Below the pieces are notes generated by a model. It did not search any database. It was not told the DNA's origin and saw only the letters and a list, made by a program, of their open reading frames with translations. A program made the position numbers and the translations under genes. A stretch of 44,424 nucleotides of DNA, taken from NCBI GenBank assembly GCA_046712485.1, contig JBKKCW010000053.1, positions 1 to 44,424 of the forward strand, in the 5' to 3' direction. Below are positions 15,647-30,169 of the stretch, one piece after another. The DNA is from Candidatus Limnocylindrales bacterium (GTDB lineage: Bacteria > Chloroflexota > Limnocylindria > Limnocylindrales > CSP1-4). The stretch's first letter is position 1, and each line of letters begins with the position of its first letter.

Positions 15647-16675
15647 ATGCGGGATCTTGCGCGTCCCACGCTTGTCACCGTCGCCCAGCGAGCTGGCGTC
15701 TCGATCGCGTCCGTGTCTCGTGTGATCAACGGCCTGCCGGCCACGCCGGACATGGTCCAGCGAGTCCGTGCTGCTTCGGAGGCCGTTGGGTACGTCCCCG
15801 ACGCCGTCGCCCGCTCGCTCAAGGCGGGACGGACCGGTCAGCTCGCGTTCGCGGTCGCCGACGTGGCCAACCCGGTCTACGTGGCAATGATGCGGGCGAT
15901 CGAGCGAGTGACCAAGGAGGCCGGCTACCGCCTGCTCCTGAGCTCGACCGATTCTCAGCCGGCCGACGAGATTGCGCTCTTGCGCAGTCTGCGCAATCGT
16001 CACGTGGACGGCATGATCCTGATTCCGATCCGGGTCACGCCCGAGTTCGTCGACGAGCTCTGCCAAGCCCCGCTCCCGGTCGTCGTTATCGGCACGCTGC
16101 CTGCCGAGGTCCCAGTCGACAACGTACGAGCCGACTCCCGGCAGGGCGTGGGCCTTGCGATCGCTCATCTGGTTGAGACTGGACGCCAGTCGATCGCGTT
16201 CATCAACGGTCCGATCGACACGGTGCCAGGGGAGGCTCGTCTCGAGGGCTTCCGGGCCGCGCTGGACGCCGCGGGCCGAGCATTCGACGCTGACCTCGTC
16301 GTCACCGCGGAGGATTTCACCTTCGCCGCCGGAAGACGGGCCGCACGCGCCCTGTTCCACCGCGCGCGACCCGATGCCGTGTTCTGCGCCAACGACCTTC
16401 TTGCGGTCGGGGCCCTTCGTCAGCTGATTGATCTCGGGCTGCGCGTTCCGGACGACGTGGCCCTCGTCGGGATGGACGACACAGAGCTCGCCGAGATGAG
16501 CGCCCCGTCGCTGTCGAGCGTCTCGCTCGGCTCGGAGGAGCGAGGCGCGCTGGCGGCAAACCTCCTCCTCGAGCGCCTGGCCAATCCATCGATCGTCATC
16601 CGTCGGCTGCACGTCGCGCCAAGGCTGGTCGTACGCGAGTCGTCGGTCGCCACCATCCGAGGAGCTCACCGGTGA
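15647..16675 (+). CDS. LacI-family transcriptional regulator
   Basis: HTH TLVTVAQRAGVSIASVSRVINGLP, YVPDAVARSLK, and a periplasmic-binding-protein-like C-terminal domain. Confidence 0.9.
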   Translation: MRDLARPTLVTVAQRAGVSIASVSRVINGLPATPDMVQRVRAASEAVGYVPDAVARSLKAGRTGQLAFAVADVANPVYVAMMRAIERVTKEAGYRLLLSSTDSQPADEIALLRSLRNRHVDGMILIPIRVTPEFVDELCQAPLPVVVIGTLPAEVPVDNVRADSRQGVGLAIAHLVETGRQSIAFINGPIDTVPGEARLEGFRAALDAAGRAFDADLVVTAEDFTFAAGRRAARALFHRARPDAVFCANDLLAVGALRQLIDLGLRVPDDVALVGMDDTELAEMSAPSLSSVSLGSEERGALAANLLLERLANPSIVIRRLHVAPRLVVRESSVATIRGAHR

Positions 16676-17577
16676 CCGCCATGTCGGCTATCCGTCGGGC
16701 CACGGGTCGCGAACAGCGGGAGGCCATGGTCTTCCTGGTGCCGGCTCTGATCCCCGTCGTGATCTTCAGTGTCGCCCCGCTCGCGGTCGGCATCTACCTG
16801 GGCTTCACGGACGCAGTCGCCGGTATCGACGTCACGACCAACTTCACCTGGCTGGATAACTACACGCGATTGCTCGGCAACTCGCTGTTCTGGCAGTCAT
16901 TCCTCACGGGCCTCATCTGGGCGTTCGGCGTCACGGCCCTCCAGGGCGTGCTGGGGCTGGCCCTCGCGTTGCTCCTGAACGAGCGACTGCGCCTGCGCTG
17001 GCTGGCAAGGACGCTTGCCCTCGTGCCCTGGGCGATGCCCTCGGTGATCGTGGCCATCATGTGGCGAATGGTCTACCACCCCGACGCCGGGATCCTCAAT
17101 GCGTCGCTTGAGGGTTTGGGGATCCTCGACACAGGGATCAATTGGCTTGGCGGCGTCGATACGGCGTTCGCGGCGGTCGTGGTCGTCGGCGTCTGGGCCG
17201 GGTTGCCGCAGACCACGGTCGCACTGCTGGCCGGCCTGCAGAGCGTCCCCCCTGAGCTCCACGAGGCGGCCGAAGTTGATGGCGCGAACATCGGCCAGCG
17301 GTTCCGACACATCACGCTGCCCCAGATCCGGCCGGTGGCCGATGCAATCTTCTCCCTCAACTTCATCTGGAACTTCAATGCTTTCGGGCTCGTGTACGTG
17401 CTGACCGCGGGCGGGCCGGGAGGCCGGACCATGCTGCCGGCACTCTTCGCGTACAACGAGGGCTTCCGCTACGGGAACTTCGGGTACGCCGCGGCGATGG
17501 GCAATGCGATGGTCATCCTGATCATCGCCCTCCTCGCGATCTACCTGCGGCGGCGCCTCAGGGCGGCTGACGCATGA
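16672..17577 (+). CDS. carbohydrate (CUT1) ABC transporter permease, MalF/UgpA-like
   Basis: Six TM segments and EAA loop EAAEVDGANIGQRFRHITLPQIRP. GTGA overlap with the regulator's stop. Confidence 0.9.
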   Translation: MTAMSAIRRATGREQREAMVFLVPALIPVVIFSVAPLAVGIYLGFTDAVAGIDVTTNFTWLDNYTRLLGNSLFWQSFLTGLIWAFGVTALQGVLGLALALLLNERLRLRWLARTLALVPWAMPSVIVAIMWRMVYHPDAGILNASLEGLGILDTGINWLGGVDTAFAAVVVVGVWAGLPQTTVALLAGLQSVPPELHEAAEVDGANIGQRFRHITLPQIRPVADAIFSLNFIWNFNAFGLVYVLTAGGPGGRTMLPALFAYNEGFRYGNFGYAAAMGNAMVILIIALLAIYLRRRLRAADA

Positions 17578-18410
17578 GGCGGCCCAGCCTGGTGATGCGA
17601 GCTGCTCAATATGTGCTGCTCGTGGCCTTCCTGGTCTTCCTCGCGTTCCCCCTGATCTGGATGATCTCGACCTCGTTCAAGGGCCCGCGGGAACTCGTCT
17701 CGCTCGACCCGACGCTCGTTCCGACGAGTCCCACGCTCGACAACTACATCAACGTCCTCAACGGCCAGGACATCGTCCAGGCGGCCGCGAACAGTCTGTT
17801 CGTGTCGGTCGCAACCGCCGTCCTGACCATCGCCGTCGCCCTGCCGGCAGCCTATGCGCTGGTGCGCTACAAGACGCCGTTCCGCCGGCCGGCGCTTGCC
17901 TGGATTCTGGTCAGCCAGGTCTTTCCCCTGATCCTGATCGTCATCCCGCTGTTCCTGATCCTCAAGGAGATCGGCCTGCTGAACAGCCACGTTGGTCTGA
18001 TCGTGGTCTACGTCGTGTGGTCGCTGCCCTTCGCCATGTGGATGCTGCAGGGCTACGTCAGCACGCTGCCGCGCGAGCTCGAGGAAGCCGGCCTGGTCGA
18101 TGGCGCCGGGCGTCTCCGTGTGCTGCGATCGATCGTCCTGCCATTGCTGGCGCCCGGCATCGTGGCGGCCACGCTGTTCGCCTTCATCTCGGCATGGAGC
18201 GAATTCTTCTTTGCTCTGGTCGTACTTCAGGACCCTGGGCTGGCCACGCTGCCGCTGCTGCTGGCGAGGTTCGTCGGGGTCGAAGGGATCGTGAGGCTGG
18301 GACCGCTGGCCGCGGCCTCGCTGCTCGCGACAATCCCGAGCCTCGCGTTCTTTGCACTCATCCAGCGTCGCCTCACGGAGGGACTGCTCGCGGGAGGTGT
18401 GAAGGGATAG
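17574..18410 (+). CDS. carbohydrate (CUT1) ABC transporter permease, MalG/UgpE-like
   Basis: EAA loop EEAGLVDGAGRLRVLRSIVLPLLAPG. ATGA overlap with the upstream permease. Confidence 0.9.
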   Translation: MRRPSLVMRAAQYVLLVAFLVFLAFPLIWMISTSFKGPRELVSLDPTLVPTSPTLDNYINVLNGQDIVQAAANSLFVSVATAVLTIAVALPAAYALVRYKTPFRRPALAWILVSQVFPLILIVIPLFLILKEIGLLNSHVGLIVVYVVWSLPFAMWMLQGYVSTLPRELEEAGLVDGAGRLRVLRSIVLPLLAPGIVAATLFAFISAWSEFFFALVVLQDPGLATLPLLLARFVGVEGIVRLGPLAAASLLATIPSLAFFALIQRRLTEGLLAGGVKG

Positions 18411-18482
18411 ATCCGTTCAGCAAAGGGACCGGCCACACCGTCGTGGACCAGGTTCGATCACGCCAAAGGAGGAGGCAGACGA

Positions 18483-19823
18483 ATGTCCAGTCGAATTTCG
18501 AGATTACTCGGCGTCGCGTCGATCGCCGTCATGGTCAGTGCCTGCAGCGGTGGCGGCGCCACCACGGCCCCGTCAACAGCGGCGAGCCCTGATGCGGGCG
18601 CGTCCGCCGCCGCCACGGCGAGCCCCGCTGGCGAGCCCGTCGCCCTGCGCTTTCAGAGCCTGGCGTGGCAGGAGCCGGTGATCGCGGCCAACAAGGCAAT
18701 CGTCGACGAGTGGAACGCGGCCAATCCAAACATCCAGGTCGAGTACGTCCAGGGCGACTGGGGCTCCGTTCACGATCAGCTTGTAACTCAGTTCCAGAGC
18801 GGTACCGCGCCAGACCTCATTCACTATGAGTCGGCTGGCATCGCCGGATTCTCAAACCAGGGCTTCCTGGCGGACCTGAAGCCGCTCCTGGCCGACGAAT
18901 TCAAGAACGGCATCGCTCCCGGCGTGTGGGAGGCTGTGACCTACAAGGATGACGGCTGGTACGGCGCGCCGTTCCTGCTCCAGTCGTACGTCGTGTTCGC
19001 CAACGGCGGGCTCCTGGAGGCCGCTGGAGTGGAGCCTCCGACGATCGAGGACCCTTGGACCTGGGACGACCTCCGCGCTGCCGCCAAGCAGCTCACCACG
19101 GGCGATCAGTTCGGCATGGGCTGGCCCCTCAAGAGCCCGACCGCCTCGATGATGAGCCTCTCGCTCAGCTTCGATGGCGGATTCTTCTACGACGAGGGTG
19201 GCAAGACTGTCGTCAAGTTCGGACCGGCCGAGCAGGAGGTCCCACGCCGGATCCACGAGATGATCTACGCAGACAAGTCCATCGATCCAACCTCCATTGG
19301 CCTCAGCGGGGGTGACGTCCTCCCGGGCTTCTTCGGGGGCAAGTACGCGATGATCGGCGGCGCCAACTTCCAGACGCAGCAGATGCTCGAGCAGGCGCCC
19401 GAAGGCTTCGAATGGTTGATGCTGCCCCCACTGAAGGGAATTACCCAGGCACAGGCCGCCAACCCCCAGACCATCAGCATCTCCGCGGCGAGCGAGCATC
19501 CCGCGGAGGCCGCCAAGTTCGTCGAGTTCTTCCTCGACGGCGAGAACCTGGCCAAGCTCGCGATGGGCGACTTCCTCATCCCGACCACCGAGGAGGCCGG
19601 AGCGGCCGTGCTCGCCTCCACCGGTGGCGAGGACGGCTGGGACGTGACGATCGCTTCTGGCAAGGAGCTGAAGCTCGCGCCGTTCCAGAAGGTCGAGGCC
19701 TATCCTCAATGGAAGGACCAGGTTGCCACTCCCGCATTCCAGGAATTCCTCGCGAACAGCATCGACCTCGATACACTCGGGAAGAAGCTGGTCGACGGCT
19801 GGACCCAGGTGGGAGGTGGCTGA
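18483..19823 (+). CDS. ABC transporter extracellular solute-binding lipoprotein (sugar-type)
   Basis: Signal peptide with lipobox VSAC followed by a Ser/Ala/Pro linker. ~446 aa SBP_bac_1-like sequence. Strong RBS AAAGGAGGAGG upstream. Confidence 0.9.
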   Translation: MSSRISRLLGVASIAVMVSACSGGGATTAPSTAASPDAGASAAATASPAGEPVALRFQSLAWQEPVIAANKAIVDEWNAANPNIQVEYVQGDWGSVHDQLVTQFQSGTAPDLIHYESAGIAGFSNQGFLADLKPLLADEFKNGIAPGVWEAVTYKDDGWYGAPFLLQSYVVFANGGLLEAAGVEPPTIEDPWTWDDLRAAAKQLTTGDQFGMGWPLKSPTASMMSLSLSFDGGFFYDEGGKTVVKFGPAEQEVPRRIHEMIYADKSIDPTSIGLSGGDVLPGFFGGKYAMIGGANFQTQQMLEQAPEGFEWLMLPPLKGITQAQAANPQTISISAASEHPAEAAKFVEFFLDGENLAKLAMGDFLIPTTEEAGAAVLASTGGEDGWDVTIASGKELKLAPFQKVEAYPQWKDQVATPAFQEFLANSIDLDTLGKKLVDGWTQVGGG

Positions 19824-19842: not shown

Positions 19843-21081
19843 TTGGGGACCGTGACATGTCGCGGTCCCCGATCCGCCGTTTCTGAATTGCCACAGACCG
19901 AAAGGAGACCCACGACGCTGCTCGACGACAAGGCCACGGGCTGCCTCGCCGGGGCCGCCGTTGGTGATGCCCTGGGCGGAGCAACCGAAGGTTGGACGAC
20001 CGACCAGATCCGCGAGCGGTACGGCGGGTGGGTCACGGACATCGTGCCTGCCTTCGAATCGGAGACCCCGAGGGCGGAGCGCTACTCGCGATACGCCAAG
20101 GGCGACGGTCGGATCACCGACGACACGCTGATGACCCAGGCGCTCGTCGAGGTCTACCGGCGACGCCGGCGCCACCTGGGCGCCTATGACGTGGCCGAAG
20201 AGCTCGTCCCGTTGCTGATCGGCCGGACCCAGTGGATCCCGGACATGGAGCGTGAAGACACCCCGTTTCAGCGCCTCTTCCTCGCCGAGAAATGGCTGGT
20301 GACCAAGCTCCACTACGGGCACGCCGATCCGCGCGAGGCCGGGTTCGGGAACATCGTCAACTGTGGGGCCGCGATGTACATGGCCCCGGTCGGGATCGTC
20401 AATGCGGCGGATCCCGAAGCGGCGTACGCAGAGGCGATCGATATCGCCGGCGCCCATCAATCGAGCTATGGACGAGAGGCGGCCGGGGTAATGGCTGCCG
20501 GGGTCGCGGCTGCGATGGCGCCACACGCCACCGTCGAGGACGTGATCGACGCCGGCCTTCGCGTGGCCCACGACGGCACTCGCCAGGCGATCGACGCGGT
20601 CGTTTCGTGCGCTCGCGACCTTGGGTCGTGGCGGGACGCTTTGGGGCCGCTTCGTGACGCCGTGGCTCCATTCGACACTGTCGGGCCGGACTATCGGGAC
20701 CCGGGTTTGGGCGCTCGTCGGGCGAGCCGCGTGCATTCGATCGAGGAGCTTCCAGTCGCCTTCGGACTCCTGCTCCTGGCGCGCGGGGACTATCGCGAAG
20801 CCGTGCTCGGAGCGGTGAACTACGGCCGGGACTCTGATTCGATCGCGACGATGGCCGGCGCTCTTGCCGGCGCCCTCGGCGGCCTTGACGCCGTCCCGGA
20901 ACCCTGGCGCATCGCCGTGGCCGCCGCGAGCCTGATCGACCTGGAATCGCCCGGTCGCGAGCTGGCCGCGGTCGCCCGCGAGGTCATCGAAGCCGATGGA
21001 CGACGTCGTGCCGCCCGCCAGCGCGCGTTCGACGAGCTGACGGGAGACGAGCGCCGTGCGCATCACCTGGATCCAGCCTGA
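19843..21081 (+). CDS. ADP-ribosylglycohydrolase-family protein (paralog 1)
   Basis: LAGAAVGDALGGATEGW N-terminal motif and GRDSDSIATMAGALAGALGG C-terminal motif. Start is uncertain: the track uses TTG 19843, TTG 19888 is in frame, and AAGGAG at 19902-19907 sits 10 nt before an in-frame CTG at 19918. Confidence 0.85.
   Translation: MGTVTCRGPRSAVSELPQTERRPTTLLDDKATGCLAGAAVGDALGGATEGWTTDQIRERYGGWVTDIVPAFESETPRAERYSRYAKGDGRITDDTLMTQALVEVYRRRRRHLGAYDVAEELVPLLIGRTQWIPDMEREDTPFQRLFLAEKWLVTKLHYGHADPREAGFGNIVNCGAAMYMAPVGIVNAADPEAAYAEAIDIAGAHQSSYGREAAGVMAAGVAAAMAPHATVEDVIDAGLRVAHDGTRQAIDAVVSCARDLGSWRDALGPLRDAVAPFDTVGPDYRDPGLGARRASRVHSIEELPVAFGLLLLARGDYREAVLGAVNYGRDSDSIATMAGALAGALGGLDAVPEPWRIAVAAASLIDLESPGRELAAVAREVIEADGRRRAARQRAFDELTGDERRAHHLDPA
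19845..19870 (+). other. stem-loop just after the binding-protein gene (possible mRNA-stabilising or partial terminator hairpin)
   Basis: GGGGACCG (19845-19852) pairs with CGGTCCCC (19863-19870) across a 10-nt loop. No clear U-tract (followed by GATCCGCCGTTTCTG). Confidence 0.4.
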
Positions 21082-22411
21082 AGACCTGATCCGCCACGAG
21101 TTCGTTCAAGCGGCGGACGAGGGCAAGGATGTGGCAGGCATCGTCGAGCGCTGGGTCGCGGCCGGTGGCGACTGCGTTCCTCCCGGCGTAGGTGCCTCGG
21201 ACCCGCCGGCCTCCGCGGAGCTGTCACGGCTGGCGCGCACGTTGCTCGGGGAGATCGACGCCTTGCCGACCACCGACGACACCGATGAACCGAGCGACCT
21301 GGAACGCGTTCAACGCCATTGGCGACGACCTCCGGCGCTGCCGCCGATCCCCCCGCAGGAGGCCCTTCGTGACCGCCTTCATGGCGCATGGCTGGGCCGC
21401 GCAATCGGGTGCCTGCTAGGCAAACCGGTCGAGAAGATCCCCCGAGCAGGGATACGGGAGATCCTGGAGGCAACTGGTCGCTGGCCGCTGTCCGGCTACT
21501 TCACCGCGGCTGGGCTGCCCCAGGATGTTGCGGCGCGTTGGCCCTGGAACCGGGCCAGCCGTCCAACCAGTCTCGCCGAGGTGATCGACGGGATGCCCGA
21601 GGACGACGACCTCAACTACACGTTGTTGGCGCTAAGCGTTCTCGAGGATCACGGCCCTGATTTCACAACGGACGACGTCGCCCGGACATGGCTGAGGGAT
21701 GTCCCTGCTCTTCGCGTCTTCACCGCCGAGCGGGCGGTCTATCGAAACCTGCTCGACGGGCTCCAACCACCGGACACCGCCAGGGTCGCAAATCCGTATC
21801 GCGAGTGGATCGGCGCCCAGATCAGGTCCGACCTGTACGGCTGGGCCCGGCCCGGCGACCCGCACGGCGCAGCGGAGCTCGCCTGGCGCGATGCCCGGCT
21901 GAGCCATACCCGGAATGGGATCTACAGCGCGATGTTCGTGGCCGGAATGGCGTCGGCGGCCCTGGTCAGTGACAAGGTTGACGTCGTCCTGGATGCCGGG
22001 TTGTCGGTCATCCCGCCCAACAGCCGCCTGGCCTCGGAGATCGCGGCGGCACGCCACGTCGCTTCGACCACCGACGACTTCGAGGTGGCGGCCGACCTGG
22101 TCCACGATCGCAATCGCGGGCGACACTGGGTTCATGCCATCAACAACACAGCGCTGATCGTCCTTGCGCTCTGTGTCGGGGGCGGGGACTTCGTCCGGTC
22201 GATCTGTCTCGCTGTGTCGGGCGGCTGGGATACCGACTCCAACGGCGCCACCGTCGGCGCCGTCGCAGGCGCGATGGCAGGCAGGGCAGGGCTGCCGGAA
22301 TCGTGGGCCGCTCCCCTGAAGAACCGACTGTCGACGAGCATCCCGGGCTTCGATAACGTCGGGTTCGATGAGCTTGCCGCTCGAACTGCGGCCATCGTCG
22401 CCACGACGTGA
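21056..22411 (+). CDS. ADP-ribosylglycohydrolase-family protein (paralog 2, ~105-aa N-terminal extension)
   Basis: [30 protein letters not shown] and [21 protein letters not shown] motifs. GTG 21056 overlaps paralog 1 by 26 nt. Confidence 0.85.
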
Positions 22412-24387
22412 CGCTCCCCGGTTTCAATCCGTATGTTCCGCGCCCGATCGACCTCCCGACGGCCGTTCCGCTCGACCCGCACGCGGATCTGTCGGTGCTC
22501 GACGAGGCGAAGATCTTCGCCGCGCCCGATGACCCCTCCGACTGGCCGGCGTGGCGCGCCACGCTCGAGCGTTGGCGGAACGAGGCCCGTGCACGGCTGG
22601 CGTACTCCGGCGCCCGATACGCCAACGCCCCCGCGGAAGGGTTCAGCGTGTGTATGGCATGGCTGTGGGACGAGACGCTGTACGACCACGAGCTCGGTCG
22701 CTTCACGGTCGACGCGTTCGTCGACGCCGGCGAACGCGAATTCGGTGGCTTCGATGGCGTCGCGCTGTGGCATGCCTACCCGGTGGTCGGGATCGACGAC
22801 CGCGACCATTTCGACTTCTATCGCGGCGTGCCGGAGCTTGCGGACGTTGTGGGCGCATTCCAGCGGCGCGGTGTTCGCGTCTACCTGACGTACTACCCGT
22901 GGGAGACCGGCGACAATCCCTCAGCAATCGAGGCTATCGCTGAACTCGTGGCCCAGACGGGAGCCGACGGTGTCTTCCTGGACAGCACCAAGGAGGGGAC
23001 GGTATCGCTGCGGGCAGCACTCGACGAGATACGGCCCAATTTGACCATGGAGGCCGAATCGCGGGTGCCCCTCGCGAGGATCGAGGACCACGCCATGTCA
23101 TGGGCCCAGTGGTTTGCCGACTCGAGTGTGCCGGGCGTGCTCAGAGCAAAATGGTTCGAGCGCCGGCACATGCTCCACCACGTTCGCCGCTGGCACCGCA
23201 GCCACCTCGACGAACTCCACTCGGCGTGGCTGAACGGCTCTGGCATGCTCGTCTGGGAATCCGTGTTCGGCGTCTGGGTCGGCTGGAGCGAGCGAGACCG
23301 AGCGCTGTTCCGGTCGATGCGTCGTGTCCAGCGCGAGTTTGCGCAATGGCTCCGATCAGGAGACTGGACGCCGCTGGCCGACCACACGGGCGACGACGCC
23401 CGGATCTATGCATCGCGCTGGATCCACGACGGGCGGCCCCTATGGACGATCGTGAATCGCGGAGCCGCATTGACTGGCCCGTGGCTGATCACCGACGACC
23501 GCCCCGGAAGCCGCTGGGTCGAGCTGACGAGCGGTGTCGACTTGACTGCGTCGAGCTTCGGCGACGGTCGCGTCGCCGTAGGTGGAACAATCGCCGAGGG
23601 TGGGATTGCGGCGGTCATGGCTGTGCCGGCGGAGCCCGGGTCGGCGCATGCACCGGCAATGACTCCGGCGCCCGCACTGAGGTCGCCGTCGTTCCCGGCT
23701 CGAGCGGTGATCCGCTTGCCCACGCGTGCTGTCCCGCATCGTTCCGTCCCCGCCGGCATGGTGGCGGTCCCGAGCGGCCGCCAGGACATGCTCGTCAGAT
23801 ATCGATTGAGGGAGACCGGCCTGTATGGCGAAGCCCCCTTCGTCGACGAGTGGAAGCCCCTCCCGCCTCGCCTCCACGAGCCCGCAACGATGCGTCGGGA
23901 AGTCCGTTTCGGGAGCTTCGCGATCTCCGAGCGCGAGGTGACGAACGCCGAGTTCCGCGCGTTCCGCCGGGCGACTCGTTACGAGCCGGTCCGACGAGAA
24001 CGTTTCGACCGAGCCGGTACCGGCCCGCCTGATGCGCCGGCCACTCACGTCGAGCTCGCTGATGCCCGCGCCTACGCGGGCTGGGCCGGCGTCCGCTTGC
24101 CGACCGAAGACGAATGGCAGATCGCCGCCGAGAAAGGGCTTCTCGGACGACTCGAACCCCTGGTCTGGAACCTGACCGAGAGCGAGCACGCAGACGGCCG
24201 AACACGCTTCGTCATTCTCAAGGGCGGCAGCGGGTTCACCAGCGATGTGTCCGACTGGTACTTCGATGGCGGGCCGCAACCGCCCGAGGCGTCAATCAAG
24301 CTGCTCCTGCTTGGCGCCGGACTCGGCAGGTCGCCGTGGATCGGCTTCCGCTGCGCTGTTGACCTTGAAAACGAATTGCCCGGATGA
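22408..24387 (+). CDS. two-domain protein: N-terminal glycoside-hydrolase-like (TIM-barrel-like, inferred) region fused to a C-terminal FGE-sulfatase (SUMF1/EgtB/PvdO) domain
   Basis: C-terminal ~200 aa: [24 protein letters not shown] and [30 protein letters not shown], typical of the FGE-sulfatase fold. N-terminal ~430 aa has [12 protein letters not shown] and [13 protein letters not shown] stretches reminiscent of GH-like barrels (weak call). GTGA overlap with the upstream gene. Confidence 0.7.
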
Positions 24388-25265
24388 CCGCCTCGAGCGC
24401 CGACGACGTGCCTGTCAGCCGACTGGACCTCCGGCATGCATCCGCCCCGTCACCGGCCCTGGGCGGATCGATCGAGTACTTGCTGTACCAGCCCGAGGTC
24501 GGCGGCGACCTTCGATTCCCTGTGGTCTACCTCCTGCATGGCCGCGGCGGCTCGATGACGGATGTCCGGCCGGCGCTCGCGCGCATCGATCGATCCATCC
24601 GCGACCGGCTGGTGCCCCCGTTTCTCGTCGTCGCGCCCGACGCCCCGTGGTCCAACCGCTCGAGCTGGTATGTCGATTCGAGATTTTCCGGATCTCCTCC
24701 TGGGAGGCCGATCGAAACGGCCCTTGTCCGCGACCTGGTCGATCACATCGACGCGTCCCATCCGACGATCGCCGATCGCTCCGGACGTATCGCGGCCGGC
24801 GTGTCGATGGGCGGGGCAGGCGCGCTCCGATTCGCCCTGGCGCACCCGGACCGGTTCGCCGCGGCAGTCTGCCTGAGCCCCGCGATCTACGATCCACTGC
24901 CGCCCAGCGATTCGTCGATCCGTGGATCGGTCGCATTCGGGCGAGATCGGGTGCCATTCGACCCGAGCACGTACGAGGCGTTGTCCTACAGGCGTCTCCT
25001 GGCCTCGTTCGGCCGGCAACATCCGGTTCGACTTTGGATCGGTGTCAGCAACCGGGAAATGCCGCCGTCGGACCCAACGGCCACGGGTCACGGCCTCGAC
25101 CATCAGGCTGCTGCGCTTTTCCTTGCGGCACGAGCGGTTCCCGGCATCGACGCATCACTCCTCGTCGTCGAGGGCGGGCATGACTGGCCCACCTGGTCGG
25201 CGATGCTCGAGACAGCGATACTCGATGTTCTTGGTCGGGGTACGACGCGCGGTGTGGAGCCATGA
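24384..25265 (+). CDS. alpha/beta-hydrolase, putative esterase family
   Basis: [12 protein letters not shown] and nucleophile elbow [20 protein letters not shown], typical of the esterase D / enterochelin esterase-like family. ATGA overlap upstream. Confidence 0.7.
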
Positions 25266-26485
25266 CGCGGCTTTTGCAGGGTGGAGCGATGTCCTCGCCC
25301 CGGCCGGCACTCGATGGCGTCCGCGTCATCGAGTTGGCCACACTGTTTGCCGGCCCGCTGACCGCGACGTTTCTCGGCGACTACGGCGCATCGGTGATCA
25401 AGATCGAGCACCCCCGGCAGCCGGATGCGTCGCGCGGCCACGGTCCAACCAAGGACGGCATCGGCCTCTGGTGGAAGGTCATCGGCCGGAACAAGCGGAC
25501 GATGACGCTCGACCTCTCAACGGCTGATGGCCAGGCGATCCTAGTCCAGCTCGCAGCGCGGGCCGACGTCCTCATCGAGAACTTTCGACCGGGCACGCTG
25601 GAACGCTGGAATCTGGGGTACGAGCGGCTCGCCGCGGAGAACCCGGGGCTCGTGTTCGCTCGCGTGACGGGCTTCGGCCAGGTCGGCCCGTACGCCCGGC
25701 GACCGGGGTTCGGAACCCTGGCCGAGGCGATGAGCGGGTTCGCCGCATTGACCGGCGAACCGGACGGACCGCCGACGCTTCCGCCGTTCGGGCTCGCGGA
25801 TGGGATCGCCGCGCTGGCGACTGCGTTCGCGATCATGACCGCGCTCGAGGCGCGCCGAGCGTCCGGTCGGGGCCAGGTCGTGGACCTGGCGATCATCGAA
25901 CCGATCCTGTGGCTGCTCGGGCCCCAGATCAGCGCCTACGATCAGCTTGGCGAGGTCCAGCCCCGGACGGGCAATCGGTCGCGAAACAACGCCCCGCGCA
26001 ACCTGTACCGCACGGCCGACGGTCGATGGCTGGCCGTGTCGACGAGCTCCCAGCGGATCGCCGAACGGGTCATGCGGCTGGTCGGACGCCCTGATCTCCT
26101 CAATGAGCCGTGGTTCGCGACGGGCCGAGGACGCGCCGAGCACGGCGCCGAGCTGGATAGCGCCGTCAGCGCGTGGGTTGGCCAGCGGCGAGCGGATGAG
26201 GTGGAGCGCGCCTTCGAGGACGCGGAGGCGGCCGTCGCGCCCGTCTACGATGTCCGCGACATCATGGCCGACCCGCAATTCGCGGCCCTCGGCACCATCG
26301 CACGCATCGATGATCCGGAGCTCGGCTCCATCGCCATGCAGAACCTGCTGTTCCGGTTGAGCGACACGCCCGGAGCGATTCGCTGGACCGGTCGACCCCA
26401 CGGGGCTGACACGGACTCGATCCTGGGAGAGCTCGGGATCGGGACCGACGAGCTCGCACGCCTTCGACGCGACAGGGTCGTCTGA
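25262..26485 (+). CDS. family III (CaiB/BaiF) CoA-transferase
   Basis: LDGVRVIELATLFAGPLTATFLGDYGASVIKIEHP N-terminal signature, GLADGIAAL Asp region, ~400 aa. ATGA overlap upstream (ATG 25289 is an alternative start). Confidence 0.9.
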   Translation: MTRLLQGGAMSSPRPALDGVRVIELATLFAGPLTATFLGDYGASVIKIEHPRQPDASRGHGPTKDGIGLWWKVIGRNKRTMTLDLSTADGQAILVQLAARADVLIENFRPGTLERWNLGYERLAAENPGLVFARVTGFGQVGPYARRPGFGTLAEAMSGFAALTGEPDGPPTLPPFGLADGIAALATAFAIMTALEARRASGRGQVVDLAIIEPILWLLGPQISAYDQLGEVQPRTGNRSRNNAPRNLYRTADGRWLAVSTSSQRIAERVMRLVGRPDLLNEPWFATGRGRAEHGAELDSAVSAWVGQRRADEVERAFEDAEAAVAPVYDVRDIMADPQFAALGTIARIDDPELGSIAMQNLLFRLSDTPGAIRWTGRPHGADTDSILGELGIGTDELARLRRDRVV

Positions 26486-26487
26486 CC

Positions 26488-27354
26488 GTGTCGGCCGAGC
26501 TGCAGCTGGCCCCGGCACTCACCTCGCTCTACGTCCCGGGCGACCGGCCGGACCGATTTCCAAAGGCATTGGCGAGCGACGCTGACGAGGTCATCCTGGA
26601 CCTCGAAGACGGCGTGGCCCCGGCCCACAAGGTGTCCGCCCGTGAGGCCGTCGCCCGGTTCGCCGCGGATCGGCACACAAAGGCGGTCCAGGTCCGGATC
26701 AACGGTCGCGACACGCCGTGGTGGTCGGACGATCTCGCCGCCGTCGCAGCCGCGCCGGGTCTCGCCGGCATCCGTCTCCCCAAGGTCGAAACGCCTGACG
26801 ACATACGAATAGTCGCCGCGCGCCTGCCAGCCGACGGTTCGGTGCGGATCCATGTCCTGATCGAGACGCCTCGCGCTGTCGAGGCGGCCTTCGAGATCGC
26901 CACGGCGCACCCGTTCGTCTCGTCGATCGCGCTTGGCGAGGCGGACCTTCTATCGGTGCTGTCGATCACCGACGATCGTGGCCTTGCATGGGTTCGCGGC
27001 CGGATCGTGGTTGCGGCGGGTGCTGCCGGCCTTCGTCCGCCCCAGATGTCCGTGTTCACCAACCTCGAGGACGACGCCGGGCTAGCCGCATCGTGCCGCG
27101 AAGGGCGCGGTTTGGGCTTTCTTGGTCGAGCGGCGATCCACCCGCGCCAGGTGCCGATCATCGTGGATGCCTTCCTTCCGTCGCGTGCCGAGGTCGTCGA
27201 GGCGTCGCGTCTCCTGGACCTCTTGGCAGAGGCACGCGGCGCCGGGCGAGGCGGCTTCGTCCTGCCCGATGGCCGCTTCGTTGACCAGGCGATGGCTGGC
27301 CACGCAAGAACAGTCGTCGCGCTGGATGCGCGCGGGTCGAGCAACGATGCTTGA
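26488..27354 (+). CDS. HpcH/HpaI-CitE family acyl-CoA lyase (citryl/malyl/citramalyl-CoA lyase-like)
   Basis: LYVPGDRPDRFPKALASDADEVILDLEDGVAP signature of CitE-like lyases. GTG start lies 2 nt after the CoA-transferase stop. Confidence 0.85.
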   Translation: MSAELQLAPALTSLYVPGDRPDRFPKALASDADEVILDLEDGVAPAHKVSAREAVARFAADRHTKAVQVRINGRDTPWWSDDLAAVAAAPGLAGIRLPKVETPDDIRIVAARLPADGSVRIHVLIETPRAVEAAFEIATAHPFVSSIALGEADLLSVLSITDDRGLAWVRGRIVVAAGAAGLRPPQMSVFTNLEDDAGLAASCREGRGLGFLGRAAIHPRQVPIIVDAFLPSRAEVVEASRLLDLLAEARGAGRGGFVLPDGRFVDQAMAGHARTVVALDARGSSNDA

Positions 27355-27541: not shown

Positions 27542-30169
27542 TCAATAGGGCGCCGGTCCGTCGAGCACCTCGCGCACCTTGCGACCGAGCTCCGCGGGCA
27601 CGAAGGGCTTTGCCAGGAACGCGACGCTCGAGTCGAGGACCCCCTGTGCCGACAACACCTCGCCGGCGTAGCCGGACATGAACAGGACTCGCGCCTCAGG
27701 GTGGATCGCGGCGAATTGGTCCGCGACTTCCCGCCCGCTGAGGCCGGGCATGATCACATCAGTCACGAGCAGATCGATCCGGCCTTCGTGGGCCGCTGCG
27801 GCGTCGAGCGCCGCCTTGCCGTCCTGCGCCGCGATGACCCGGTAACCGTTCCGCTCCAGGACCATCGCCGCGAGACGGCGAACGGACTCCTCGTCCTCTG
27901 CCAGCAGGATCGTCTCGTGGCCGCCTTCCGGCGAGCCGCGCGCGCCCGGATCGGCCGCGGCGGTCCTACGGGGATCCGCCTGTCTCGGGAGGTACACCCG
28001 GAACGTCGTGCCTTCGCCGACCGAGCTCGTGACGTCGATGTGACCACCGGACTGCTCCACGATGCCGAGAACCGTGGCCAGGCCGAGGCCCGTCCCACGG
28101 CCGCGATCCTTGGTTGTGAAGTAGGGCTCGAAGATCCGGGCGAGCGTCGCGTCGTCGATCCCGACGCCGGTGTCGCTGACCGAGATCGCGACATATCGCC
28201 CCTCGCGGGTGGCGGACGCCTCGGCTGCATCGTCGCCCCCCAGGTCGACATTCGCCGTCGACAACACGATTGAGCCACCAGCCTCGAGCGCGTCACGTGC
28301 GTTGACGACGAGATTGAGGATGACCTGGTCGAGTTGGCCGACGTCCGCCTGCACCCAGCCGAGATCGGACGCGAGCTCGGTGCGCAGCTCGATGTCCTCG
28401 CCGATCAGGCGCCGGAGCATCGGCTCGATATCGGATACCACCGCGTTGATGTCGACCGGCTCGGGTCGCAGGAGGCTCTGCCGCCCGTAGGCGAGCAGCT
28501 GGCGGGTCAGGGTCGCGGCGCGCCCCGCGGCGGCGTTGATCGCCGAGATGTCCTCCTGGAGTGGGTTGTCCGGCTCGAGGGACTGGGCCAGCAGATCGCC
28601 GTGTCCGGTGATCGCCGTGAGCAGATTGTTGAAGTCGTGGGCGATGCCTCCGGCCAGCCGACCGACGCTCTCCATCTTCTGGACATGCCGAAGCTGGCTC
28701 TCGAGCTCCCGTCGCGCCGTCACGTCGAGGGCCACACCGACCAGCCGCACGGGCTCGCCAAACGCATCACGCACCACGCGACCCTGCGTCACGATCTGGA
28801 CTGCCTGAGCGCCGGGCGGACCCATCCGGCACTCCGCGACGTATTCGCCGTCGGTCGCCGTCGCCCGTTCGAGCGCCTGGCGAAGGGTCTGCCGATCGTC
28901 GGGATGGACGAGCTCAACAAAGGCCCCGAAGGTCCCACCGAACGATCCCTTCGGGATCCCGACGATCGTCTCGAGGCTCTCCGACCAGCGGATCGTGCCC
29001 TCGGTCATGTTCCAATCCCAGGTGCCCATCCGCCCGGCCTCGAGGGCGAATGCAAGCCGCTCCTGGCTCTCGCGGAGCGCATCCTCGGCGGCGTGTCGTT
29101 CGCTGACGTCGCGAATGATCACGGTCTTGCCCGGTTCATGCCCGAAACCGAGGTCGGCAACTGTGGATTCGGCCCAGAACGTGCTGCCGTCCGCCCTTCG
29201 TGCCTCGAGCTCCACGGGACGACCTGCCTCGAGCTCTGATCGCGTTTGTGGTTCGCCACGGCCATGCCCGTCCGATCGAGCTCGATCGAGGTCGATCACC
29301 GCCGAGACGGGCTGCCCGATCACATCCTCCGCCGACGACCCAACGATGCGCTCGGCCGCCTCGTTGAACATGACGACGCGATCGTCGCGGTCGGTGACGA
29401 TGATGGCGTCCGGCGCAGCGGCGAGCAGCATGCGGTAGCGGCCCTCCGACCGGCGGATCCGGCGGACGAACCAGATGAATACGGTCCCGGCGATGGCCAG
29501 CAACAAGGCCGTGGCCGCCGACGCGACGATGAACAGGAGATCGCGAACCCAGCGGGCGCCTTCACCGAGGACGGCCGAGAAGCGGTCCTCGAGGATCGTC
29601 AACCGCTCGTTCACCGATCCGATCTCGGCCACGATGGCATCCACCGTCGCCGGATCCGGATCGCCCGACGAGATCGCATCGCGGAGCCGGTCGCCGTGGG
29701 CCACGAGCTTGTCGATCAGGCCGTCGCCCTCGGTCCAGATCGCGATCGCCTGGTCGATGTAGCTCACGCGGCGGAAGGCGCGGAACGTGTTGATCAGCGT
29801 CGGGATATCGGCCGGATGATTGTGGCCCTGGAGAAAGCCGGCATAGGCGACGTCGAGGTCGGGGTTCGGCTTCTCGAGCTCCACCCTGGCGATCTTGTCG
29901 CCGAGCGGCACGGAGATCGCGTCGAGGTACGCGTCGTACTCGGCCTCATCCTGCGTGTCGGCGTAGCGGATCAAGTGGAAGACGGCGTCCTTCTGCCCTT
30001 TGCTGTACAGCCCTTCGCCGCCCACGAACGCGCGCACGCCGGATTCGACCTGCAGGCTGAAATAGATGATCGCGAGCAGGCCGATGGCCGTGAGCACGAG
30101 CAACGCGATGCCCGCCCATAACCGGCCCCACTGCGACTCGCTTCTGCTCCGGACGCGCGTGACGGACAA
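27542..30169 (-). CDS. hybrid sensor histidine kinase/response regulator (TM-sensor-TM, PAS x2, HisKA, HATPase_c, REC)
   Basis: H-box [17 protein letters not shown], ATPase G-boxes (DTGVGID, GTGLGLA), C-terminal receiver [12 protein letters not shown]...[14 protein letters not shown]...KPF, and PAS-like segments. TTG 30169 is preceded by GGGGAGG. Confidence 0.9.

Follow-up and report, generated by a model that had tools for sequence, protein, structure and literature searches.

The stretch of DNA analysed here, positions 1 to 44,424 of contig JBKKCW010000053.1 from a Candidatus Limnocylindrales bacterium (hereafter the window), contains a gene for a protein of 659 amino acids, in which a barrel resembling those of glycosidases is joined to a C-terminal domain with the fold of the formylglycine-generating enzymes (FGEs). 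A preliminary description of the window had placed the respective open reading frame at positions 22408-24387 of the forward strand, and it was found exactly there, with GTG as the start codon. The start overlaps the stop codon of an upstream gene of the ADP-ribosylglycohydrolase (ARH) family (GTGA, 22408-22411) and the TGA stop codon overlaps the ATG of a downstream esterase gene (ATGA, 24384-24387), so that the gene is tightly packed in a string of genes on the same strand. The GC content of the window DNA is 65-73%. By sequence comparison, the reading frame can be regarded as a real gene and not as a chance open reading frame of high-GC DNA, because more than 2357 full-length homologues were retrieved from 5.8 billion proteins, and the best 120 of them share 62-77% identity with the deduced protein across 98-100% of its length. 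An exhaustive search of representatives at 50% identity yielded 327 clusters with E <= 1e-30. The gene is present in a single copy in its own genome (assembly of 2.7 Mb, 77% complete).

The models, domain searches and alignments described below divide the gene into the following parts:

22408..24387, forward strand: whole gene, 659 amino acids plus stop codon (open reading frame list, overlaps and homologues)
22408..22641, forward strand: N-terminal extension, amino acids 1-78, with a long helix (amino acids 43-64) that packs on the barrel, a conserved WPAWR and an 11-residue motif (model and alignment)
22642..23361, forward strand: (beta/alpha)8 barrel, amino acids 79-318 (AlphaFold model, Foldseek)
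22981..22983, forward strand: D192, proposed nucleophile at the end of strand 4, in DGVFLD (alignment and model)
23056..23058, forward strand: E217, proposed general acid/base at the end of strand 5, in EAES (alignment and model)
23362..23628, forward strand: all-beta sandwich, amino acids 319-407, resembling 'domain C' of amylase-type glycosidases (model)
23629..23739, forward strand: linker, amino acids 408-444, rich in proline and alanine, of low confidence and poorly conserved (alignment, full-length model)
23740..24384, forward strand: shortened FGE-sulfatase (C-type-lectin-like) domain without catalytic cysteines, amino acids 445-659 (Pfam, PDB searches, alignments)
24256..24273, forward strand: family-specific W-Y-x-D-G-G motif, amino acids 617-622, with a putative binding role (alignments)

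The sequence motifs quoted in the preliminary description are present in the translation, those of the N-terminal part coinciding with strands 2, 3 and 4 of the modelled barrel. The description also stated that a signal peptide is missing; in agreement with this, no hydrophobic N-terminal signal was detected in the first 45 amino acids, where the maximal Kyte-Doolittle value over 12 residues is 1.07, compared with maxima of 2.4-3.1 in secreted relatives.

The C-terminal FGE-like domain

The assignment of the C-terminal part, a domain of about 215 amino acids, to the FGE-sulfatase fold was borne out by a match of Pfam PF03781 to amino acids 496-584 (E 3.7e-20), which covers only positions 29-132 of the 255 positions of the profile. 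In the PDB, the nearest sequences are those of FGEs, pFGE, CalU17 and EgtB, all of them aligned within amino acids 443-587, and the best FGE matches reach E values of 1.5e-09 with the single sequence and 2e-19 with the family profile. FGE structures are also among the Foldseek matches of the full-length model. The domain comprises a conserved beta-hairpin with R468 and E469, the core motif RLPTEDEW and the end GFRC, a terminal motif that is common to the FGE fold. In diverse relatives, conservation within the domain falls on residues of the core motifs (RLPTExEW, GFR, G606 and Y618). The W-Y-x-D-G-G motif is present across the whole family and lies in the stretch after KGGS, which we take from general knowledge, and not from an alignment of these sequences, to be the place of the catalytic cysteine loop in true FGEs.

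The fold raises the possibility that the activity of the protein resides in this domain, which would then be a copper- or iron-dependent oxidative enzyme that forms C-S or C-O bonds or an aldehyde, with the barrel only holding the substrate. The clear match to PF03781 is in favour of this possibility, as are the closest PDB sequences, among them FGEs, EgtB, SenA and OvsA, and the annotation of the family by NCBI and JGI as 'SUMF1/EgtB/PvdO family nonheme iron enzyme'. True FGEs bind Cu(I) through two active-site cysteines (C336 and C341 of the human enzyme), whereas the whole protein encoded in the window contains only two cysteines, of which C82 belongs to the barrel and C649 to the GFRC motif at the end. 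The preliminary description had left to be checked whether the domain keeps the catalytic cysteine pair of FGEs or the histidine triad of EgtB, and neither of them is present. A second conserved cysteine of the domain was not found in 30 orthologues or in 25 diverse relatives, and in the diverse alignment neither cysteine nor histidine is conserved within it, the respective values being 68% for H490, 32% for H594 and 64% for C649. A domain with a single cysteine cannot act as formylglycine generator, and this function was thus ruled out.

An iron enzyme of the EgtB type was rejected as well. The sulfoxide and selenoxide synthases EgtB, OvoA and SenA, in which the FGE-like domain forms the substrate-binding half, provide the best local NCBIfam matches of the protein (SenA, E 1.8e-13; EgtB, E 6.5e-11), with equivalog scores that stay far below the cut-offs (50.7 bits versus 420 for SenA and 42 bits versus 360 for EgtB). 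In enzymes of this type the iron is bound by ligands of a DinB-like domain at the N-terminus. A Pfam scan revealed no match to DinB or DinB_2 in the protein or in 25 relatives, and the N-terminus of the protein is a TIM barrel in the model; without a DinB domain and its histidine triad the protein is not of the EgtB type. The name 'nonheme iron enzyme' is thus unsupported by the sequences of the family, because they contain neither a conserved histidine or cysteine in the domain nor a cysteine pair nor a DinB domain. Moreover, half of the canonical domain remains unmatched and the strongest conservation is held by the barrel. Oxidative catalysis by the FGE-like domain, which we consider very improbable, is the weakest of the alternatives in our weighing because the required metal ligands are missing, and the domain almost certainly does not perform it.

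Compared with the aerobic FGEs (human SUMF1 and the enzymes of Thermomonospora curvata and Streptomyces coelicolor; PDB entries 6muj, 2q17, 6s07 and 5nxl), the domain has the fold, RLPTExEW and the terminal GFRC in common. It differs from them in the loss of the copper-binding cysteines, in the partial profile match and in its length, since the subgroup of the window is about 60 residues short of the canonical domain when compared with longer relatives. It is moreover fused behind a barrel region of 410 amino acids and encoded in a sugar-uptake operon, not together with sulfatase genes: a domain scan of the operon genes detected no sulfatase. One match to PF00884, a family that also takes in non-sulfatases, is located elsewhere in the 77%-complete genome (contig C292).

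The N-terminal barrel and its candidate catalytic residues

The larger N-terminal part was described before as a TIM-barrel region of carbohydrate-active type. Amino acids 1-440 have no match in Pfam or NCBIfam, and a Pfam scan of 25 diverse relatives up to an E value of 5 gave only insignificant hints to Malt_amylase_C and Glyco_hydro_42C for this part. Likewise, a search of all PDB sequences with the family profile returned proteins of the FGE fold only and none for amino acids 1-440. A first full-length model, built on 30 close orthologues, reached a pLDDT of 76 and a pTM of 0.82 and was poor at amino acids 218-263; it retrieved two sets of PDB matches, glycosidases of the GH13 type (glycoside hydrolase family 13) for the N-terminal part and FGE/EgtB proteins for the C-terminal part. 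A second model, by AlphaFold, was calculated for amino acids 1-415 alone, with an alignment of 90 sequences that were taken from three subfamilies and have identities of 24-80%. The deeper alignment cured the weak barrel region and resulted in a pLDDT of 94.4 and a pTM of 0.93.

The second model consists of eight beta/alpha units followed by a beta-sandwich (amino acids 319-407). The barrel strands are formed by amino acids 80-85, 117-121, 157-162, 188-191, 213-217, 230-233, 255-258 and 279-282 (strands 1 to 8). In a Foldseek comparison of this model with the PDB, the top 50 listed matches are all glycoside hydrolases, comprising branching enzymes, amylases, neopullulanases and acarbose hydrolase of family GH13 as well as GH29 fucosidases, with E values from 4e-11 to 8e-09, TMq values up to 0.56 and identities of 10-13%. 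The nearest solved folds are thus those of families GH13 and GH29, and the glycosidase-like character assumed for this region was retained.

The GH13 enzymes (Anoxybacillus amylase, 5a2a; Rhodothermus branching enzyme, 8zqa; TVA II; neopullulanase) show the same succession of barrel and beta-sandwich (E 4e-11, TMq 0.50-0.56), and in the model of the protein an aspartate and a glutamate that are invariant in the family occupy the ends of strands 4 and 5. In contrast to these enzymes, it lacks a match to PF00128, the arginine two residues before the strand-4 aspartate (DGVFLD) and the NHD motif on strand 7. The GH29 alpha-L-fucosidases (AlfB, 9hyj, 8ozu; Bacteroides thetaiotaomicron, 2wvu) contain a barrel of similar size and a C-terminal sandwich, with Foldseek E values of about 3e-10 and a TM score of 0.51 by either chain, whereas sequence similarity or a match to Pfam Alpha_L_fucos was not detectable (E up to 5, 25 members) and the root mean square deviation is about 9 A. 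According to the model, the likeness is one of fold and architecture and not of membership in a GH family. As a separate observation, contig C387 of the same genome contains the best match to the GH13 alpha-amylase family (positions 360-1727), with one in-frame TAG, which might mean that the gene is a pseudogene, that the stop codon is recoded or that the sequence contains an error.

The strongest conservation of the family is found in the barrel. Residues D88, G113, W121, Y124, P125, G128, D130, W165, D192, E217, W232, R261, N276, G277, W283, F287 and W293 show no variation in the alignment of 90 sequences. In the model, strand 4 terminates with D192 and strand 5 with E217, and retaining glycosidases of the GH13 type carry the nucleophile at the end of strand 4 and the acid/base at the end of strand 5. 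D192 and E217 are therefore proposed as the candidate catalytic pair.

This layout bears on two further explanations. The protein could be non-enzymatic, acting as a pseudo-glycosidase, in lectin-like binding, or as chaperoning or regulatory subunit of the ARH enzymes. A precedent is provided by PvdO and PorK/GldK of type IX secretion, FGE folds that were retrieved with the family profile and that we presume to be non-catalytic and devoid of the cysteine chemistry of FGEs; the family itself has no known activity. Unlike the protein of the window, however, these are periplasmic proteins or lipoproteins that stand alone, with no glycosidase-like barrel attached. In addition, acidic residues occupy the canonical catalytic positions without exception in three subfamilies whose identity falls to 24%, and ARH genes do not accompany every member of the family, as homologues in Bacteroidota and secreted multi-modular proteins show. 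A non-enzymatic role is on this account hardly to be expected. The second explanation assumes that the barrel acts on a sugar derivative without hydrolysis, as a phosphorylase, a transglycosylase (GH13 sucrose-phosphorylase type), an isomerase, a lyase or an esterase, with the FGE-like domain again as a binding module. Barrels of the GH13 type include phosphorylases and transferases, and the structural likeness to glycosidases exists at the level of the fold only; on the other hand, the invariant aspartate on strand 4 and glutamate on strand 5 represent the classical layout of retaining glycosidases. The kinases and secreted relatives that also bear on this explanation are considered below.

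Operon, probable ribose link and distribution of the family

The gene belongs to a group of ten same-strand genes that encode a LacI-family regulator, two CUT1 permeases, a solute-binding protein, the paralogues ARH_A and ARH_B, the barrel-FGE protein, an esterase, a family III CoA-transferase and a CitE/HpcH-like lyase. The flanking genes are located as follows:

15647..19823, forward strand: operon head with LacI-family regulator, two CUT1 permeases and solute-binding protein (domain matches, neighbour counts)
18483-19823, forward strand: solute-binding protein
19843..22411, forward strand: two ARH paralogues, directly upstream of the barrel-FGE gene (domain matches)
24384..27354, forward strand: esterase, family III CoA-transferase and CitE/HpcH-like acyl-CoA lyase, downstream of the barrel-FGE gene (domain matches)

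The conservation of this gene order was examined at 80 loci of species-representative genomes from many families of Actinomycetota, Devosia and another member of the Rhizobiales, Trueperaceae, Meiothermus and Limnocylindria. The neighbours recur with their order kept: the CoA-transferase gene is present at 78 of the 80 loci, ARH_B at 77, ARH_A, the CitE-like lyase and permease 2 at 73 each, the solute-binding protein at 71, the LacI regulator and permease 1 at 70 each, and the esterase at 28. Variations of the ARH region were observed in Haloactinopolyspora alba, where two extra ARH paralogues between the gene of the solute-binding protein and ARH_A (L017:4538-6558) give a total of four ARH genes, and in Kribbella sp., where an open reading frame of 828 amino acids without a Pfam match lies between ARH_A and ARH_B (L034:5331-7817); a gap of the same size separates the two ARH genes at loci L037, L045 and L054. 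Just 3' of the operon of the window, on the opposite strand, a hybrid histidine kinase of 875 amino acids with PAS, HisKA, HATPase and receiver domains is encoded (27542-30169, reverse strand).

The operon proteins gave no specific pointer to the substrate. The solute-binding protein matches generic CUT1 sugar binders only and the ARH proteins match the core of their family only. The best equivalog of the CoA-transferase is the succinate-glutarate transferase, with 227 bits versus a cut-off of 750, while the lyase reaches 150 versus a cut-off of 375 with the RipC equivalog and is about equally similar to acyl-CoA, malyl-CoA and citryl-CoA lyases. Since both enzymes are far from every equivalog cut-off, the acid that they convert cannot be named.

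A probable link to ribose is provided by a PfkB kinase that is encoded immediately upstream of the barrel-FGE gene at 54 of the 80 loci and aligns end to end with the ribokinase model (270 bits versus a cut-off of 300). In the genome of the window, a ribokinase-like gene (280 bits versus the same cut-off, 48% identical) was identified on a separate contig of 2.6 kb (C166:419-1321), and it may supply the kinase step that is missing from the operon of the window. At a Pedobacter locus (Bacteroidota, L082) the neighbouring kinase is a ribokinase with 336 bits, above the cut-off, and another Bacteroidota homologue (L085) also adjoins a PfkB kinase. The best match of the LacI regulator is RbsR, below the threshold. 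Two gene fusions were found, one combining a PfkB (ribokinase-like) domain with the barrel-FGE protein (P0127) and the other combining the latter with the esterase (P0123). These data indicate that the operon probably breaks down a ribose-containing compound. The PfkB kinases also match models of ribose-1-phosphate kinase, which would suit a phosphorylase, yet these matches are weak (93-104 bits) and the fit to ribokinase is far better (270-336 bits).

The barrel, the sandwich and the FGE-like domain are kept together in three large subfamilies, namely the actinobacterial type, which includes the protein of the window, a type of about 640-720 amino acids in Armatimonadota, Planctomycetota, Verrucomicrobiota, Anaerolineae and Chlorobia, and a Bacteroidota type of about 860 amino acids. 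The preliminary description had suggested a search for the same fusion in other proteins, and it was found in thousands of them; the barrel-FGE fusion is an ancient unit of many phyla. Signal peptides are present in the Bacteroidota type and in long forms, in contrast to the protein of the window, and the long forms carry CHB_HEX_C, Fn3_assoc and dockerin modules, or cohesin with FIVAR. Extracellular relatives with dockerin or CHB_HEX_C modules suit hydrolases better than phosphorylases, and an activity of the barrel without hydrolysis is, in view of all these observations, considered unlikely.

One Bacteroidota homologue is encoded amid GH94, GH28, GH78-like, GH39 and GH2 genes. A second conserved setting was detected in Bacteroidota (L082:6249-12607 and L085:4016-10628), in which genes for an AP_endonuc_2 protein resembling sugar isomerases or epimerases, a PhyH protein of the iron- and 2-oxoglutarate-dependent dioxygenase type, a RhaT-type permease and a PfkB kinase are followed by the gene of a secreted homologue. 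Regulators of the GntR or hybrid two-component type adjoin this module, in L085 together with SusC/D genes. Related gene sets have been described by Glowacki et al. (bioRxiv 10.1101/574913) as the ribose utilisation (rus) loci of Bacteroidetes, which are centred on ribokinase and contain variable glycosidases, ADP-ribosylglycohydrolases and esterases. A figure legend of that paper lists an 'FGE' gene among the variable enzymes, which may or may not belong to the present family. The kinase genes next to the two Bacteroidota homologues resemble this arrangement, whereas the operon of the window uses an ABC importer and a LacI regulator instead of SusC/D and adds the CoA-transferase and the CitE-like lyase.

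Databases (NCBI, JGI) annotate the relatives by the FGE domain only. The view that the architecture has no defined function was upheld, as the family is widespread and named after this domain in every source, and literature searches on the architecture, on ribofuranosidases and on the gene combination revealed no paper on the family or the operon. Each part by itself, glycosidase-like barrel or FGE fold, belongs to a known kind, whereas their obligate combination, a barrel without a family and the operon are not described.

Proposed function of the barrel-FGE protein

With the model of the barrel and the gene context taken together, the protein is rather likely to be a cytoplasmic glycosidase of a new family that acts on an imported ribose-containing glycoside. 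The first 410 or so amino acids, which share the body plan of the GH13 and GH29 glycosidases, would cleave a glycosidic bond, with D192 as the putative nucleophile and E217 as the putative acid/base, and residues D88, D130, W121, W165, W232, R261, N276 and W283 may line the sugar pocket. The FGE-like domain, devoid of the copper-binding cysteines, would most likely be a fixed module without catalytic activity that binds the substrate or acts as a lid, and the WYxDGG motif is a candidate for a contact to the substrate. The substrate would enter the cell through the adjacent CUT1 ABC importer under control of the LacI regulator; given the missing signal peptide and the adjacent importer, the enzyme would act inside the cell on the imported compound, as had been assumed before. 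Its partners would be the two ribosyl hydrolases of the ARH family, the esterase, the CoA-transferase and the CitE-like lyase and, in most relatives, a ribokinase. Established here are the fold, the conservation, the absence of the cysteines, the operon structure and the fused genes; hydrolysis as the reaction, the identity of the catalytic residues, the function of the FGE-like domain and the kind of substrate are inferred.

The enzyme set of the operon points to a ribose-containing glycoside that also bears a carboxylic-acid moiety. The aglycone or a substituent would probably carry the carboxylate, which the CoA-transferase would activate before cleavage by the CitE-like lyase, and the esterase suggests that an acyl substituent may be present on the substrate. 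Glycosides of malate, citramalate and citrate, fragments of bacillithiol, ribose-containing polysaccharides and nucleoside derivatives were considered as substrates, and the neighbouring genes gave nothing specific for any of them.

Several points weigh against the assignment as a glycosidase that acts on a ribose-containing compound. The likeness to glycosidases exists at the level of the fold only (TM about 0.5, 10-13% identity, root mean square deviation 6-9 A), and the Pfam and PDB searches provided no tie to any GH family at the sequence level. A comparison by hhalign with an alignment of 12 GH13 sequences from related genomes covered 47 columns (strands 2-3) with a probability of 15%. 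The catalytic residues were assigned from strand positions in the model and not by superposition, and chemistries other than that of glycosidases also occur in TIM barrels. Furthermore, no member of the family has a measured activity, the neighbourhoods of those homologues of the Armatimonadota/Planctomycetota type that were examined are uninformative, and the operon of the window lacks a ribokinase gene, the only copy found being located on another contig.

A more far-reaching form of the glycosidase assignment is put forward here tentatively, as a possibility that is less probable than the assignment itself. According to it, the protein would represent a new GH family in which an obligatory FGE fold without cysteines completes the active site and which frees ribose or a ribosyl fragment from a widespread natural glycoconjugate, and the operon of nine to ten genes would be an undescribed catabolic pathway in Actinomycetota, Deinococcota, Chloroflexota and some Alphaproteobacteria.

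The consequences for the family concern both its naming and its physiological role. Thousands of database proteins owe the name 'SUMF1/EgtB/PvdO family nonheme iron enzyme' or 'formylglycine-generating enzyme' to a C-terminal domain without the catalytic residues, while the larger and better conserved half of these proteins is a glycosidase-like barrel that is missed by the domain libraries. Proof of the proposed function would probably define a new family of carbohydrate-active enzymes and would, for the first time, give the FGE fold a role as an integral part of a glycosidase. It would also help to find the substrate of one of the better conserved unassigned sugar-uptake operons of soil actinomycetes, in which the salvage of ribose is apparently linked to acyl-CoA metabolism.

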